Of a DNA stretch of 64,000 bases, positions 3,798 through 59,276 are shown piece by piece; positions within the stretch are counted from its first letter, which is position 1; each line of letters begins with the position of its first letter. The position numbers were made by a program, and so were the translations under genes. The DNA lies in NCBI GenBank assembly GCA_902790625.1, contig CADASP010000011.1:9856-73855 (forward strand), given 5' to 3'. The DNA comes from an uncultured Prevotellaceae bacterium. GTDB lineage: Bacteria; Bacteroidota; Bacteroidia; Bacteroidales; Bacteroidaceae. The notes under the pieces are model-generated. The model was not told the DNA's origin, did not search any database, and worked only from the letters and a program-made list of their open reading frames with translations.

Positions 3798-3920
3798 GGA
3801 GTGAAAAGGAGTGAGCCGACATTCATCGGCGCGAGTGAAAGTGACGTCAGACTTCACGTTGAAGAGCTATCGTCCCTTTCACTCCCCCTTTCACTCCCTT
3901 TCACTCCTTTTCACTCCCCC
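3798..3920. repeat. Inverted GGAGTGAAA / TTTCACTCC microsatellite element with no gene inside
   Basis: ggagtg at 3798 and 3808 (gagtgaaa at 3833); cactcc at 3880, 3892, 3902, 3912. Same unit as the arrays flanking 25344-25721. Confidence 0.8.
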
Positions 3921-3932
3921 TTTTTTAATCAG

Positions 3933-6059
3933 ATGAAAAGAATCCTGTTTGCTCTCTGTCTGTTGTCGACGGCTTTCTGCTATGGCAAAGACATCCCGCA
4001 AGTGACGTGGGATCGTCACAGTTTGATGATTGACGGTCGCCGTGTGTGCCCTGTGATGGGCGAAGTGCACTATTCGCGCATTCCTGCCGATGAGTGGCCT
4101 GATGTGGTGGCGAAGATGAAGGCTGGCGGCGTGACCGTCATCGCCACCTATGTGTTTTGGAACCATGTCGAGGAGCAGCAGGGCATCTTCCGTTGGGATG
4201 GGCAGCGCTCGCTTCGCCGTTTCCTGCAGGTGTGCCGCGATGCCGACTTGCCTGTGGTGCTGCGCATAGGCCCCTTCTGCCATGGCGAGGCGCGCTGCGG
4301 CGGCATCCCCGACTGGGTGTTCGCCCAGAGCCAGAAGGCTACTGGCACGCGTATAAAACCACGCAGTACCGACCCAGGGTTCCTCGCCCTGGTGGAAGAG
4401 CTGTATCGGCAAATCTTCAGTCAGGTGCAGGGCTTGCAGTGGAAGGATGGCGGGCCGGTCATGGCTTGCCAGTTCGACAACGAGTATCGTGGTTCGGGCG
4501 ATTATCTGATGGCCCTGAAGCGCATCGCCCTGCAGATAGGCTTCGACCTGCCCTTCTACACCCGCACCGGCTGGCCTGAGCTGTCGAAGCCCGTGCCTTA
4601 CGGCGAAATGCTGCCCCTCTATGGCGACTATGCCGACGGCTTCTGGGAGCGCTCGCTGGAAGAGACGGCTGGCAACTACTACAAGGCTTTCAACTTCAAG
4701 GCTTCGCCGCTCTCGGATGCCATCGCCACCGAGCAGTTTGACTATTCCAATGCCAATGCTCAACGTCCAGCCCCTAATCCTCAGCATAGCTACCCCTATT
4801 TCACCTGCGAGCTGGGCGGCGGCATGATGGTGGCCTATCATCGCAGACCCTACCTCTATCCCGAGGATGCCTACTCCATGGCACTGGTGAAGCTGGGCAG
4901 CGGCAGCAACCTGCTGGGCTACTACATGTATCACGGGGGCACCAACCCCGACGGCCTCACCACCCTGAACGAGCACCAGCGCACGCTGGCCACCAACTAC
5001 AACGACATGCCCGTGAAGAACTACGACTTCCAGGCTCCGCTGGGCGAGTTCGGGCAGACCTATCCCCATTATTATATGTTGCGCCCCCTGCATCTCTTCA
5101 TGCGCTACTGGGGCGAGCAGCTGGCTACGATGGAGGCACAGTTCCCCGTGGCGCAAGACATCAAGAAGGGCGACGACAGCCATCTGCGCTGGTGCTGGCG
5201 CAGCGTGCACCCCATCAAGGGTGAAGGTCCTGAGCGGGGATTCATTTTCATCAACAACTACGAGCGTCTGCAAAACCTGACGGCCAAAAAGGGCGTGCGG
5301 ATAGGAGCCTGTGGCGTCGACCTGCCTGCGCTCACCATCCCCGCTGGATGTATGGCCATCCTGCCGCTCAACATCGACGGCATCCGCTATGCCACTGCCC
5401 AGCTGGTGGCCAAGCGCGACGGAAAGATCTACCTGATGCAGATTCCCGGCCTCCCCACCACCATCAGCATGCTCGACGGCAAGACCCTGCGCCGTCTGAA
5501 GCCCTTGGGCATGGCGAAACCCGTCTACAAGAACCTCTATCTGCTCACCCGCGAAGAAGCCGAGCACTTCGGGCTGGAGGCTTCGGGAAGCCCGAATATT
5601 CCGAATAATCCGAATATTCTGAATAATCTGAATAATCCGAATAATCCGAAAGATTCAGAAAACCTGGCAAGCCCCTCCTACTCCAAGCTGCGTGAGGCCG
5701 GCCCCCTGCGCCTCATCAGCATGGGTGTGCAGCGCGTGGCCGAAGAACCTACCGATGCCGACTTTGAGCAGGCCGCCGTCTATCGCATCCAGGTTCCCGC
5801 CACCGAGGGGAAGAAGCTACTGAAGATTGACTACCGTGGCGACGTGGCCCGCCTCTATGCCGATGGGAAGCTGGTGGCCGACAATTTCTACTATGGCCGC
5901 CCGTTCCTCTATGGCCTGTGGCGGTTGCCCCAAGGCACCCAGCAGTTGGAGCTGCGCATCCTGCCCTTGCAGCCCGACATGCCCGTCTACTTCCCCCGCG
6001 AAGCCGACACCACGCCAGGCGAACAAGTGAACAGCATCACGATAGAACCCTTGCAGTAG
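3933..6059 (+). CDS. Glycoside hydrolase family 35 (beta-galactosidase-like), secreted
   Basis: Signal peptide MKRILFALCLLSTAFCYG; GEVHYSRIP, YVFWNHVE, LRIGP, QFDNEY, CELGGG, YYMYHGGTNP, YDFQAPLGEFG motifs. Start moved from 3792 to ATG 3933. Confidence 0.9.
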   Translation: MKRILFALCLLSTAFCYGKDIPQVTWDRHSLMIDGRRVCPVMGEVHYSRIPADEWPDVVAKMKAGGVTVIATYVFWNHVEEQQGIFRWDGQRSLRRFLQVCRDADLPVVLRIGPFCHGEARCGGIPDWVFAQSQKATGTRIKPRSTDPGFLALVEELYRQIFSQVQGLQWKDGGPVMACQFDNEYRGSGDYLMALKRIALQIGFDLPFYTRTGWPELSKPVPYGEMLPLYGDYADGFWERSLEETAGNYYKAFNFKASPLSDAIATEQFDYSNANAQRPAPNPQHSYPYFTCELGGGMMVAYHRRPYLYPEDAYSMALVKLGSGSNLLGYYMYHGGTNPDGLTTLNEHQRTLATNYNDMPVKNYDFQAPLGEFGQTYPHYYMLRPLHLFMRYWGEQLATMEAQFPVAQDIKKGDDSHLRWCWRSVHPIKGEGPERGFIFINNYERLQNLTAKKGVRIGACGVDLPALTIPAGCMAILPLNIDGIRYATAQLVAKRDGKIYLMQIPGLPTTISMLDGKTLRRLKPLGMAKPVYKNLYLLTREEAEHFGLEASGSPNIPNNPNILNNLNNPNNPKDSENLASPSYSKLREAGPLRLISMGVQRVAEEPTDADFEQAAVYRIQVPATEGKKLLKIDYRGDVARLYADGKLVADNFYYGRPFLYGLWRLPQGTQQLELRILPLQPDMPVYFPREADTTPGEQVNSITIEPLQ
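5592..5654 (+). repeat. In-frame 9-bp tandem repeat (c[c/t]gaata[a/t]t) x7 inside GH35
   Basis: Encodes PNIPNNPNILNNLNNPNNPKD; AT-rich relative to the flanking codons. Confidence 0.85.
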
Positions 6060-23409: not shown

Positions 23410-25260
23410 TTAGCTCTCGTAGTCTATCTCGTGGTCGAGCTTCTCCAAGAAATCGTCGAACACCTCGCGGTCAACGTCGCCCATGGCATACTCCTTCTCG
23501 GCATCCTTCCTGATTTCGGCTATCCAGGCGCGGCGAGCCTGCACATAGTCTTCGCGTATGCGCTCACAAGCCTGCTCGTCGAGTTCCGTCAGGTGGTAGT
23601 AGTCAAGTATGAGCTGGTAGCTCCATGCCCAGCGGTAGTCGCTGTATCGGTTGTTGATGTCGTCGAAGCGGTCGAGCACCTGGGTGATGTTGTCGATGGC
23701 ACCATTGTTGATGTCGTCGATGAGGCGCTGCTCCTCGCTCACGGGGGTGAGCAGTCCGCTCAGGTCGGACCAAGGGCCTTTGCCCACTTCCGATTTTGGC
23801 TTGCCGAAGAATCCCTCCTTGGTGGCGCGCTTCAGCACGGCTCCCATATAGATGCGCAGGGCGATGTCGTAGTACTTCAAGCCCTTTTGTAGACTGGAGG
23901 CGTTGATGACGTATTCATGGAAGTTGTAGGTGGTGACGTTGTCGCCGCTGGCCTGGCGCAGCGCTTCCAGAATCTTGATGCCTTCCACAATCTCGCCCAC
24001 GGTGTAGGGGCTGAGCCAGTCGAAGTTGATGATGCTCTTCTTGGCCAACTTTGAGCGCTTGTCGCGCTTGGGCCATTTCTTGATGTCGCGGTAGAGACCC
24101 ACCGTGGTGATGTTGCGTCCGGGCACGATGTACATCGTCTCGCCGTAGGCCATCAGATAGCTGAACGGCAGGTTGCGTGTGTCGGGGTGGTGCATCAGCT
24201 TGCCGAAGCAGACGCTGAAGGCGCCGATGGTGGCGGGCATCAGCACATAGCTGCCCGAGGCGGTCTTCGTGCCGCGCTCCAGCGTGCCGTAGTGCATAGG
24301 CCCCATCTTGTAGGCGTGGTTCGAGAAATTGGTGTTCGAGCCGGCGTTGTAGAACGAGAACTGTCCGCCGATGAGCAGGCTCGACTTGTGGTGGCTGGCC
24401 GAGAAGGGGCCGCAGAAGGCGGCGCAGGCCTCGCCGTTGGCCATGAACGAGTTGGCGAAGAACAGACTGGCCTCGGCGGTGAAGCCGTTGGTGATTTGGC
24501 AGGCCTCGCCCACAAAGCAGTCCTGCATCTTCACCGAGTTGTTGATGCTGCAGCCGTCGCAGATGATGCTGTTCTCGCAGATGACACCCGTGCCGATGAA
24601 CACGCTGGCATCCTCGCTGCTGAGGATGGTGCACTCGTTGAGTCGTGCGCAACCGCTGATTTCGCAGTCGCCTTTGATGACGGTGTTGGTGATGTCCTTG
24701 GTGTTGATGATTTTCACGCGATTGCCGATGATGCCGCGGTCGGGCGTGGAGATGCGCACCTCGTCGTCGATGAGCTGGTGCAGACGCTGCATCAATGCCT
24801 TGTCGTCGTGGTGCTTCACCATGAAGGCGGCCAACTGCGAGTTCAGCTCGCGGAAGAGCGTCACGTTGCCGTCGCCCATCTCGTTGAGCACGCTGATGGT
24901 AGAGCCGGCGCCATAGCTGGCACCCTCGGTGGTCTCCAGCGTCGAGATGTTCGAGATGTAGCAGTCGTCGCCGATGGTGTAGTTGTTGATGAAGTTGCCC
25001 ACCTTTTCAATCAGGCAGTCGTTGCCCACACTGACGTTGCGCAGCGTGGCGTCATTGATGCCCGAGTGCTTGAAGAAGCCCTTGGCCACCTCAATCTTCT
25101 TCTCGAAACGTCCTAAGCGGATGTCGCCGTAGAACATCACGCGATGGAAGTTGTACGGCCGGAATTCCTCATGCACCAGCACACGTGTCCAGTCCTCGGC
25201 CCAGCACACGTTCTGCTCTAAAACCCGAATCTCGTCTTGAGTTAGTTGTCTGTAGTTCAT
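23410..25260 (-). CDS. DUF4954 family protein (left-handed beta-helix-like)
   Basis: MNYRQLT..EI..LE.N.CWAEDW; hexapeptide-like repeats; CGPFSASHHKSSLLIGG.FSFYNAGS.TNFSNHAYKMGP.H.G.LERG.KT.SG. Confidence 0.88.
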   Translation of the reverse strand: MNYRQLTQDEIRVLEQNVCWAEDWTRVLVHEEFRPYNFHRVMFYGDIRLGRFEKKIEVAKGFFKHSGINDATLRNVSVGNDCLIEKVGNFINNYTIGDDCYISNISTLETTEGASYGAGSTISVLNEMGDGNVTLFRELNSQLAAFMVKHHDDKALMQRLHQLIDDEVRISTPDRGIIGNRVKIINTKDITNTVIKGDCEISGCARLNECTILSSEDASVFIGTGVICENSIICDGCSINNSVKMQDCFVGEACQITNGFTAEASLFFANSFMANGEACAAFCGPFSASHHKSSLLIGGQFSFYNAGSNTNFSNHAYKMGPMHYGTLERGTKTASGSYVLMPATIGAFSVCFGKLMHHPDTRNLPFSYLMAYGETMYIVPGRNITTVGLYRDIKKWPKRDKRSKLAKKSIINFDWLSPYTVGEIVEGIKILEALRQASGDNVTTYNFHEYVINASSLQKGLKYYDIALRIYMGAVLKRATKEGFFGKPKSEVGKGPWSDLSGLLTPVSEEQRLIDDINNGAIDNITQVLDRFDDINNRYSDYRWAWSYQLILDYYHLTELDEQACERIREDYVQARRAWIAEIRKDAEKEYAMGDVDREVFDDFLEKLDHEIDYES

Positions 25261-25285
25261 ATTAATATTTGTTGGTTGATTAGTT

Positions 25286-25325
25286 GGAGCGAAGGGGAGT
25301 GAAAAGGAGTGAAAGGGAGTGAAGG
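25286..25325. repeat. GGAGTGAAA array, left arm of the four-helix-bundle cassette
   Basis: ggagcg at 25286; ggagtg at 25296, 25306, 25316. Confidence 0.8.
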
Positions 25326-25343
25326 GACATCAGTCCTTTGGCT

Positions 25344-25721
25344 TCAGTCTTTGATTCCATTGTTGTTTATTATTCCTTTACAATAAGAATTCAAGAACCT
25401 GCTGGCTTCTTCCAATGAATTGTAAAGTAGCTGAATATCAGTTTCGTCAATATATGCAATATCTCTTGATAGAATCAAGTAGTCCCGGCATTCTTCAAGA
25501 CTTCCCTGAGCGATGTTGAGCATTCTAAGTTTATCTGCTTTGCTTATCCTTTTATATCCTTCTGCTATATTGGCTTCTATAGATACTGCAGCCCGGCGAA
25601 ATTGTGATGTCAAGCCAAAACGTTCATCTTCGGGGAACTTCTTTGTCACCCGATAAGCTTCTATGACAAAAGCATGTGCTTTTTGCCATGCTATCACATT
25701 TTGAAATCCATATAGTATCAT
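25344..25721 (-). CDS. Four-helix-bundle protein (23S rRNA IVP / Avd-like family)
   Basis: F..VIAWQKAH.F...Y..TK.FP.DERFGLTSQFRRAAVSI.ANIAEG...L.IA.GSL.E; low GC (21/60 in line 25381). Start moved to ATG 25721. Confidence 0.92.
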   Translation of the reverse strand: MILYGFQNVIAWQKAHAFVIEAYRVTKKFPEDERFGLTSQFRRAAVSIEANIAEGYKRISKADKLRMLNIAQGSLEECRDYLILSRDIAYIDETDIQLLYNSLEEASRFLNSYCKGIINNNGIKD

Positions 25722-25763
25722 GCGATTATATGATTGTATAAACAGTTCCAAATTATATAGTGT

Positions 25764-25856
25764 TCTCACTCCTTTCACTCCCTTCACTCCCTTTCACTCC
25801 TCCTCATCTAACGTCCTTTCACTCCCTCTCACTCCCTTTCACTCCCTTTCACTCCT
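25764..25856. repeat. TTTCACTCC array, right arm of the cassette; overlaps the hflX stop
   Basis: cactcc at 25767, 25776, 25785, 25795, 25820, 25830, 25840, 25850. Confidence 0.85.
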
Positions 25857-27168
25857 CCCACTCACTTTGGTACAAAAAGTCATTGTAGGGGTACTTCTGC
25901 ACGTGCAGCTCGCGTACCTTTTTATATAATAACGCGCGAAGCTCTTCGATATTGTCTTTTTGGCGTGCAGAAATGAAGATGCAGTCGCTGGCCGTCGTGA
26001 AGTCGGGGCTTTGGATGCGGGCCATCCAGGTGCGCTGTAGCTCGGCCAGTGAGATGTTCTCGCGTGTGGGCTCTGTCAGGTCGTCTTCGTCCTGCGGTGT
26101 CCAGCGGTAGGCATCGATTTTGTTGAATACAATCATCGAGGGCTTCTCGGCGCAGCCCAGCTCGGCCAGCGTCTGCTCCACCACCTTCAGCTGCTCCTCA
26201 AAGCCGGGGTGGCTGATGTCCACCACATGCACCAGCAAGTCGGCCTCGCGCACCTCGTCGAGGGTGCTCTTGAAGCTCTCCACCAGGTCGCTGGGCAGCT
26301 TGCGGATGAATCCCACGGTGTCGGCCAGCAGGAACGGCAGGTTTTCGATGGTCACCTTGCGCACGGTGGTGTCGAGGGTGGCAAAGAGCTTGTTCTCAGC
26401 GAAGACGTCGCTCTTCGCCAACAGGTTCATCAGCGTCGACTTGCCCACGTTGGTATATCCCACCAGCGCCACGCGTATCAGCCGTCCACGGTTCTTGCGC
26501 TGGGTGGTCTTCTGCTGGTCAATCTCTTGCAGACGCTGCTTCAGCAGGGTGATGCGATGCAGGATGATGCGGCGGTCCATCTCCAACTGCGTCTCGCCGG
26601 GGCCGCGCAGTCCCACGGTGCCCTTGCCGCCACCGCCGCCGCTGCCGCCTCCCTGACGTTCCAGGTGGGTCCACAGACGCTGCAGTCGGGGCAGCATATA
26701 GCGGTGCTGCGCCAGCTCCACCTGTGCCTTGGCCTCGGCGGTCTGGGCACGCATGGCAAAGATGTCGAGGATGAGGCTGGTGCGGTCCAGAATCTTCACC
26801 TGCAGCTCCTTCTCGATGTTGCGCAGCTGCTTGGCGCTCAGCTCGTCGTCGAAGATCACCATGCCCACGGGCTGGGGGCGCTGGCCGTTGGGCCATTCGG
26901 CATCATCGGCAGCTTCGTCGGCGGCATCTTGGCATTCTTTGATATAATTCTTAATCTCTTGCAACTTGCCGCTGCCCACATAGGTCACCTGACTGGGACC
27001 ATTGGCGCGCTGGGTGAAGCGGCGCATGGTGGTGGCACCGGCCGTCTCGGCCAGGAACTCCAGCTCGTCAAGGTATTCGCGGGTGGTGGCTTCGTCTTGC
27101 TGGGGGGTAATCAGTCCCACCAGCACCGCTGTCTCGGTTTTGGCTTCTGAGATGACAAATTCTTTCAT
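25849..27168 (-). CDS. hflX: GTPase HflX
   Basis: LDRT.LILDIFA.RA.T.EAK.QVELAQ; GPGETQLEMDRR; G1 VGYTNVGKST; LFATLDTT; DTVGFI; NKID. Confidence 0.97.
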   Translation of the reverse strand: MKEFVISEAKTETAVLVGLITPQQDEATTREYLDELEFLAETAGATTMRRFTQRANGPSQVTYVGSGKLQEIKNYIKECQDAADEAADDAEWPNGQRPQPVGMVIFDDELSAKQLRNIEKELQVKILDRTSLILDIFAMRAQTAEAKAQVELAQHRYMLPRLQRLWTHLERQGGGSGGGGGKGTVGLRGPGETQLEMDRRIILHRITLLKQRLQEIDQQKTTQRKNRGRLIRVALVGYTNVGKSTLMNLLAKSDVFAENKLFATLDTTVRKVTIENLPFLLADTVGFIRKLPSDLVESFKSTLDEVREADLLVHVVDISHPGFEEQLKVVEQTLAELGCAEKPSMIVFNKIDAYRWTPQDEDDLTEPTRENISLAELQRTWMARIQSPDFTTASDCIFISARQKDNIEELRALLYKKVRELHVQKYPYNDFLYQSEWEE

Positions 27169-59080: not shown

Positions 59081-59276
59081 TACGTACAATTCACGACTCA
59101 TTCACGAGTCATTTACGTACATTCGCGTTACGCCGAAGGCACAAAGTTTGTCTGCGACGCTACGCGAATTTCCGTGAATGTCCCGTGAATGTTCCGTGAA
59201 TGTCCCGTGAATGCTGCGCAATGCTCTAATTCACGATTCATTCACAATTTTACGTACATTTGCGTTACGCCGTAGG
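59081..59276. repeat. Composite repeat: two attcac-rich ...cattYgcgttacgcc modules around (ccgtgaatgtY) x4
   Basis: Modules at 59081-59139 and 59227-59276; 11-bp tandem at 59172-59215. Confidence 0.8.

Follow-up and report, generated by a model that had tools for sequence, protein, structure and literature searches.

Comparison of the junction between hflX and the DUF4954 gene in an uncultured Prevotellaceae bacterium with the same junction in related genomes, and of the small gene found there with its paralogues, shows what is, on the evidence of these alignments, an acquired cassette that is defined by its repeat arms and belongs to a class found across the gene family. The explanation that we favour, with moderate confidence, is a family-wide class of promoterless cassettes, in each of which a PF05635 gene would lie between inverted arrays of a short (7–10 nt) repeat, and which sit between the cistrons of operons. 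Within the same explanation, and at the same level of confidence, these cassettes would have the architecture of the 23S rRNA intervening sequences (IVS) that contain an ORF, but sited between operon cistrons. The features of the locus, numbered from the first nucleotide of the window (the whole 64,000-nucleotide stretch of DNA that was analysed), are as follows.

3798–3917, no strand assigned: empty hairpin of GGAGTGA/TCACTCC units with a loop of ∼60 nt that contains an inner stem, and no gene
23410–25260, minus strand: DUF4954/DUF6819 protein gene, the downstream gene
25261–25863, minus strand: the cassette as inserted, 603 nt, beginning directly after the hflX codon CAA and ending directly before the DUF4954 ATG
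25280–25331, minus strand: 3′ arm (as transcribed), four CACUCC-type units, complementary to either 5′ block
25344–25721, minus strand: four-helix-bundle protein gene (PF05635/TIGR02436), 125 aa, GC ∼0.37–0.40
25722–25758, minus strand: AT-rich leader, from the 5′ arm to the start codon of the four-helix-bundle gene
25759–25866, minus strand: 5′ arm (as transcribed), eight GGAGUGA-type decamer units in two blocks of four
25849–27168, minus strand: hflX (GTPase HflX; TIGR03156, 401 bits), the upstream gene

The cassette gene is listed as an ORF of 147 aa with a GTG start (25344–25787, minus strand). Judging from the N-termini of its paralogues, the likely true start is the ATG at 25721 (MILYGFQNVIAWQKAH...), which gives a protein of 125 aa. 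This protein belongs to PF05635 (E=1.3e-37; 128.7 bits against a cut-off of 33.8) and also matches TIGR02436 (121.7 bits against a cut-off of 24); we take the two to describe the ‘23S rRNA intervening sequence protein’ (IVP) family. To our knowledge, no function has been established for PF05635 since its discovery in rRNA intervening sequences some 30 years ago. The nearest solved structure is that of XCC0516 (PDB 2gsc; phmmer E=5.3e-17, residues 8–98), which was deposited as five chains. GC content is 0.37–0.41 inside the cassette and 0.56–0.62 in its flanks, and the gene itself stands at ∼0.39 in a genome of 0.55. HMM scores, coordinates and GC content all bear out the preliminary description of a low-GC IVP-family gene between co-oriented hflX and DUF4954. 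The relationship to 23S rRNA intervening sequences and to Avd that was drawn there is likewise real at the level of HMM and phmmer matches (PMC4990558, PMC10053308).

Avd, a protein of diversity-generating retroelements (DGRs), has a homologous four-helix-bundle fold and a similar size, and the cassette protein gives weak matches to bAvd (27 bits) and to NF033474 (DivGenRetAVD; 35.8 bits). One could thus ask whether the gene is a remnant or solo Avd gene of such an element. However, both scores fall below the family cut-offs (40 and 80 bits, respectively), and neither a reverse transcriptase nor a template/variable repeat pair is present at the locus or nearby, where the neighbours are hflX and DUF4954. 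We rejected the DGR reading, which we regard as extremely improbable.

Compared with an allele of 92% identity at the same site, the IVP gene has a dS of 0.40 and a dN of 0.036 (dN/dS, ω, of 0.09), while the adjoining 3′ end of hflX has a dS of 0.53 in the same comparison. As indicated by these substitution rates, the cassette protein is under purifying selection. When we searched the cassette, leader included, for TAnnTTTG, the Bacteroidetes −7 promoter motif, none was found; a sigma-70 scanner was left aside because Bacteroidetes promoters differ. Given the lack of this motif in the cassette, together with the co-orientation of the gene with both of its neighbours, we infer that the gene would be transcribed by read-through from the hflX operon.

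The 5′ arm consists of a distal block (25815–25866) and a proximal block (25759–25808), with a non-repeat stretch of ∼16 nt between them; each of its three frames contains stop codons. The final five amino acids of HflX, SEWEE, are encoded in this arm, as is the stop codon, a TGA at 25849–25851 that falls within the second repeat unit, in agreement with the earlier suggestion that one arm supplies the hflX stop region. Set against the sequence of the closest relatives, the 3′ end of hflX is evidently rebuilt by the insertion. On the plus strand, GGAGTGA lies at 25296, 25306 and 25316, preceded at 25286 by the degenerate GGAGCGA, and eight copies of TCACTCC lie within 25766–25855; TRF reports period-10 arrays at 25286–25323 and 25766–25855. 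These positions match the eight CACTCC units on one side and the three to four GGAGTG units on the other that were first described. All three genes are on the minus strand, and the order proposed for the transcript, GGAGUG arm before the gene and CACUCC arm after it, is the order found. Over the 64-kb window GGAGTGA has 20 matches where 8.96 are expected, and 17 of the 20 are at the cassette and at the empty hairpin at 3798–3917.

RNAfold predicts a stem of ∼45 bp that encloses the cassette (MFE −192.1 kcal/mol, compared with −142.6 ± 7.3 kcal/mol for shuffled sequences; z=−6.8). In the predicted fold the arms are able to pair and to loop the gene out, as had been anticipated, and the two halves of the 5′ array are alternative partners for the 3′ arm, in a duplex of ∼40 bp (−75.1 or −60.7 kcal/mol). 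An Rfam scan of the whole window returned no match. In the mechanism that we propose, an arm duplex of ∼40 bp would loop the gene out of the transcript and, by analogy with the rRNA intervening sequences, would make a plausible substrate for RNase III, while the stop-rich G arm would terminate the upstream reading frame. The genome has an RNase III gene (G000:C12:43419–43787).

In order to place the cassette in its lineage, DUF4954 was located in 40 related genomes and the DNA upstream of it was compared for 19 congeneric species. The two genes are adjacent and co-oriented in 19/19 congeners, with spacers of ∼4–140 nt, and in none of these 19 species is there a four-helix-bundle gene at the hflX–DUF4954 junction. 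In the two closest relatives (82–84% DUF4954 identity) the hflX stop and the DUF4954 start overlap (GATTATGA), with a spacer of ∼4 nt; the extra sequence relative to their junction amounts to 603 bases (25261–25863). The closest relatives also indicate that the arms were absent from the junction before the insertion. Taken at face value, the alignments show one insertion, in the recent ancestor of this lineage and exactly between hflX and DUF4954. We saw no target-site duplication or other insertion signature at the junctions. An element of the MITE or IS type was considered and rejected, given that the arm sequence differs at each of the 7 + 29 copies known to us, and that both the duplication and a cassette transposase are absent.

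Filled junctions at the identical site are found in several metagenome contigs, and the alleles measure 546, 603 and 670 nt. Among those with 97–99% protein identity, the 603-nt form carries 8 units and the 670-nt form 12, the interruption being duplicated in the latter; the 92% allele carries 4 units in its 5′ array (546 nt). The 3′ arm is identical among five nearly identical alleles. A pattern search of near-conspecific metagenome contigs found no empty junction, against four filled ones. We read this as vertical descent after the insertion, with a protein maintained by selection and a 5′ array that changes fast (4, 8 or 12 units). The preliminary description had proposed a mobile cassette. 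The acquired unit stands, the junction being empty in 19/19 congeners, but movement is evident as a past event, with four filled junctions and no empty one among near-conspecific contigs. On our reading, a unit of 603 nt was inserted once between hflX and DUF4954 and then inherited vertically. In two of the cassette-free congeners (locus L006 in genome G009 and locus L017 in genome G007) the junction contains direct tandem arrays, of the GGCTAATAA type and the GAAAGATTGAAATATT type respectively, suggesting that the hflX–DUF4954 spacer attracts repeats independently.

The same design recurs across the gene family. The genome has ten PF05635 matches, seven of them short and AT-rich and three long, and all seven short paralogues lie between co-oriented, operon-like partner genes and are enclosed by inverted tandem arms. 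Their sites include kduI–kduD, frdA–frdB, a histidine kinase/response regulator pair, parA–parB, kdgK–eda and hflX–DUF4954, and the arm units vary from locus to locus (GGAGTTGCTGGAGTACA, GGTCGTTTA, GGAGTGAAAG, GGTGAGA, GGGAGTTAAAG, GAATGAAGA and AATTAAGAGTT). Beyond this genome, IVP copy number ranges sporadically from 0 to 16 among 41 relatives. Most of 29 cassettes from other species have a matching layout, yet use other units, and clear complementary arms are present in 28 of 36 cassettes within the order (30 genomes). The enrichment of arms around four-helix-bundle genes that a survey of flanks had been suggested to reveal was thus found both among the short paralogues (7/7) and in the order (28/36).

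It might be argued that arrays are so common that a small gene could have acquired one on each side by chance, as there are 784 intergenic arrays of period 6–24 in this genome against 2,954 genes called by a crude ORF caller, which caught six of the seven short IVP paralogues. We attach next to no weight to this argument. Arm complementarity scored over 2,926 genes has a median of 7.5, and just 26 genes reach 19.5 or more, among them 6/6 of the called IVP genes. Chance juxtaposition also has to contend with the absence of the arms from the junction before the insertion, and with the repetition of the pattern in the 28 of 36 cassettes from 30 genomes.

The two arms of a cassette resemble each other more than they resemble the arms of other cassettes. 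Across the 36 cassettes the median own-arm score is 25, compared with 9 for cross-cassette pairs, and 21/36 score above the 99th percentile of the cross pairs. Several sites are common to more than one species, namely kduI–kduD (3), etfA-like/acyl-CoA dehydrogenase-like (4), frdA–frdB (2) and ychF–lgt (2). At these four shared insertion sites the 5′ arm finds its best match in its own 3′ arm in 10 of 11 rows, with one tie. An own-arm best match even at shared sites implies that the two arms change together. Between different sites, protein identity is correlated with arm similarity (Mantel rho 0.275, permutation p=5e-4), and all members of the ‘...AWQKAH...’ subfamily have units of the GGAGT(T/G)AA type. 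As far as these alignments reach, they show that gene and arms descend together, and that at unrelated sites the type of arm goes with the protein subfamily.

At 22 loci the IVP gene runs in the direction of both of its neighbours, and at one locus it runs against both. Upstream and downstream arms do not differ significantly in length (22 vs 12, p=0.12). At one locus (L054, a metagenome contig with a 77% IVP homologue upstream of gcvH) a 5′ array of ∼20 units, mostly of the GGAGTTAAAG type, faces four complementary units on the 3′ side; this is an extreme of the arm-length imbalance found among the hflX–DUF4954 alleles. The three long-form proteins (221–254 aa; C21:13319–13540, C24:25337–25555 and C13:106504–106731) have an N-terminal four-helix-bundle domain. 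Two of them likewise have complementary arrays on both sides (CATAACTCC/ATGGGAA and GGTAGGT/ACCTAC), and the downstream array of these two is read as part of the protein, giving a Gly/Asn-rich or Gly/Arg-rich stretch near the C-terminus.

Arrays of this kind are not confined to the cassettes. TRF finds 1,099 arrays of period ≤12 in the 4.1-Mb genome, with period 7 dominant, and the most frequent units are GGAGTTA (81 arrays), GAATGAA (65), AACGTTC (46) and GAGAGGT (35). Short-period arrays also flank ordinary genes. Other loci, too, carry units that serve in IVP arms: GAATGAA in its 65 arrays, GAGAGGT in its 35, GGTCGTTT in 17 and the GGAGTGAAAG type in ∼26. The arms are therefore not specific to the IVP gene and are part of a genome-wide class of arrays. 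There are 200 inverted array pairs, 123 of which have a gap below 100 nt and are empty hairpins, and genome-wide we count ∼140 hairpins without a gene. The gaps within inverted pairs show a dip at 200–400 nt and a second peak at 400–500 nt, which includes the small-gene cassettes. We know of no explanation for the short-period intergenic repeats of bacteria.

One of the empty hairpins, at 3798–3917 and 21 kb from the cassette, is built of the cassette's own GGAGTGA unit. Its predicted fold has an energy of −59 kcal/mol (z=−8.4), a run of T follows it, and it lies 16 nt upstream of a plus-strand gene (start at 3934) with a signal-peptide-like N-terminus. Elsewhere in the window, the hairpins at 328–392 and 600–663 each have a GC-rich core palindrome (AAAAGTGGGCTGCGCATC...GCGCAGCCCACTT) enclosed by heptamer arrays of the AAGTGAA type; they are ∼270 nt apart, with no ORF of at least 40 aa between them. 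At 59089–59249 there are inverted arrays of 11-mers, of ATTCACGACTC and CCGTGAATGTC types, forming another repeat hairpin of the genome-wide type.

Is the complementarity of the arms maintained in RNA or in DNA? Stem mismatches read in the sense orientation carry no RNA-wobble signature: G:U and A:C number 16 vs 26 in the cassettes, or 35 vs 51 when the cassettes are aligned more loosely, and 19 vs 25 in empty hairpins between co-directional genes. Stems maintained by selection on RNA should have an excess of G:U; these counts have none, and transversions occur at least as often. The pattern suggests that complementarity is probably kept by a process acting on DNA, slippage together with arm-to-arm conversion, and not by selection for RNA pairing alone. 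Our conclusion is that arm complementarity is probably renewed at the DNA level rather than by RNA-pairing selection alone, and that a role in RNA remains compatible with this. In our proposal, slippage and conversion between the arms would keep the two complementary while the unit comes to differ between cassettes.

The lack of a G:U excess would also suit a purely DNA-level element. Here the inverted arrays themselves would spread, as elements of the hairpin or MITE type, and would lengthen by slippage. The gene would be their cargo and would pass from one hairpin to another with a matching unit through homologous recombination in the arms, the empty hairpins would be its landing sites, and RNA folding would be a by-product. 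The ∼140 empty hairpins and the short gaps of 123 of the 200 inverted pairs are in keeping with such an element, as are the hairpin at 3798–3917 with its GGAGTGA units, the recurrence at other loci of the IVP-arm units (GAATGAA, GAGAGGT, GGTCGTTT and GGAGTGAAAG-type), and the differing number of 5′ units in alleles that are otherwise nearly identical. However, the closest relatives have no array at the junction that could have acted as a landing site, and arms that differ between copies offer no single recognition sequence of the transposase type. Furthermore, the co-orientation of the gene with its host operons (22 vs 1) points to a constraint at the level of the transcript. For these reasons we consider the purely DNA-level reading a minority possibility, to be kept in mind alongside the promoterless operon cassette that we favour.

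The arrays have a polarity. Of 28 cassettes, 27 have the G-rich arm on the 5′ side, and so do 67 of 72 empty hairpins irrespective of how the adjacent genes are oriented, so the hairpins have a handedness, with the G arm first on either strand. We rejected this G/C polarity as a marker of gene orientation, since the property is identical on both strands. The G-strand unit contains a stop codon in 424 of 555 arrays (76%), where 369.5 (67%) are expected (z=6). Stop codons were nevertheless set aside as the reason for the units, the enrichment being modest and the C-rich strand being enriched too. One may speculate that a transcript or ribosome coming from either side would meet the arm with stop codons first, and that the C-rich arm would be made after its partner.

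Other small genes in this genome lie among repeats. Five AT-rich DUF559/Vsr-type-like genes (C1:182534–183002, C14:57307–57777, C19:50644–51208, C8:136237–136759 and C1:52445–52840; named by eye) were noted, and at least four of the five lie within GC-rich REP-like palindromes (CCCCTCCC...GGGAGGGG), an arm class unlike that of the IVP cassettes. Three small GxxExxY or PD-(D/E)XK-like genes (C23:43126–43506, C9:195485–195886 and C5:150575–151015; also named by eye) lie between inverted arms; two of these loci have A-rich 9–10-nt arrays as arms (AAAACAGAGA, ATTCAAAAG). Two RAYT/IS200-like genes, again named by eye (C1:109168 and C9:147453), have REP-like hairpins at their flanks.

Array density was measured over the whole genome G000 and over ∼400 kb sampled from each of six congeners, and is given here with the number of IVP copies.

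G000 (whole genome): 7 short + 3 long IVP copies, 267 arrays/Mb
G005: 12 IVP copies, 250 arrays/Mb
G016: 11 IVP copies, 385 arrays/Mb
G018: 0 IVP copies, 42 arrays/Mb
G009: 0 IVP copies, 97 arrays/Mb, 4 inverted pairs
G022 (GC 0.51): 1 IVP copy, 0 arrays/Mb
G012: 1 IVP copy, 20 arrays/Mb

The three IVP-rich genomes thus have 250–385 arrays/Mb, against 0–97 in the four genomes with no copy or one. G022 is poor in arrays at a similar GC content (0.51), so GC content does not explain the difference in density, which is a correlation across seven genomes.

These densities raise the possibility of a repeat-reading protein. In this view every PF05635 paralogue, probably assembled into a pentameric ring, would bind its own unit in DNA or RNA; it would maintain, spread or regulate arrays and hairpins genome-wide, and a cassette would comprise the protein with its cognate sites. 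The tracking of protein subfamily by arm type across unrelated sites is what such a reader would be expected to produce, and other families of small genes enclosed in hairpins are present here with other arm classes. The homologue XCC0516, with five chains in 2gsc, is described as a homopentameric toroid (PMC4990558). Against this, the densities are a correlation and extend to seven genomes, G009 has 97 arrays/Mb and four inverted pairs yet no IVP gene, and no cassette in the genome corresponds to some of the abundant units, among them AACGTTC (46 arrays). A repeat-reading protein therefore seems to us unlikely as an account of the cassettes. We are just as doubtful of its wider form, in which PF05635 proteins would be the partners of short-period intergenic repeats, each paralogue recognising its own unit and making, keeping or spreading inverted arrays.

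Returning to the operon cassette that we prefer, its likeness to the ORF-bearing 23S rRNA intervening sequences of Coxiella and Leptospira can be set out point by point. The IVS of Coxiella burnetii, in helix 45 of the 23S rRNA, is 428 nt long and has a 28-bp terminal stem that RNase III cuts in the middle; it contains the S23p ORF, of the PF05635 family, is low in GC and is thought to have been horizontally acquired (PMC4990558). Both kinds of element have a PF05635 gene (in 428 nt there and 546–670 nt here), placed within terminal inverted repeats that form a long stem (by our criterion at least 20 bp; ∼40 bp is predicted here). In both, GC is below that of the host, occurrence among relatives is sporadic and the genome has an RNase III gene. 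In contrast to the IVS, the cassette lies between protein-coding cistrons, flanked by hflX and DUF4954 and outside any rRNA helix, and its arms are tandem arrays of a 10-nt unit whose number varies. We also list as a difference the clear purifying selection on the cassette protein (ω of 0.09). Excision by RNase III is established for the 23S IVS; for the cassette it would be a prediction from sequence and fold.

Two other kinds of repeat element share features with the cassettes. Intergenic TAACTGA heptamer repeats occur in Beggiatoaceae, Cyanobacteria and a few Bacteroidetes, and provide stops in all three forward frames; 169 direct sets and one inverted set are described (PMC4679880). The term ‘helix bundle’ is absent from the text of that paper, and no four-helix-bundle gene is named there. 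Like these repeats and the cyanobacterial STRRs, the arrays studied here have a short period (7–10 nt), are mostly intergenic, occupy many loci, contain stop codons and are patchily distributed; unlike them, they come as inverted pairs, whether or not a gene is enclosed. REP, BIME and MITE elements are likewise small, palindromic, intergenic, multi-copy and capable of forming hairpins in operon transcripts. However, REP and MITE families have a conserved sequence that is recognised by a RAYT or a transposase, while in the cassettes the arm sequence varies and the periodic unit is what they have in common. Separate REP-like elements and RAYT-like genes exist in this genome. In the literature that we searched there was no account of four-helix-bundle cassettes in operons, or of this layout outside rRNA.

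The locus amounts to a natural experiment, in which a single, dated insertion has come between two formerly overlapping genes and in which alleles differ only in the number of arm units. A hairpin of the same unit stands empty 21 kb away, and both congeners that have the system and congeners that lack it are available. Were the arms found to be cut, or to be bound by the protein, elements of the IVS type would occur in mRNAs as well as in rRNAs and would affect the expression of operons. Should PF05635 proteins prove to be partners of the repeats, then rRNA intervening sequences, operon cassettes and empty repeat hairpins would all be products of one system.
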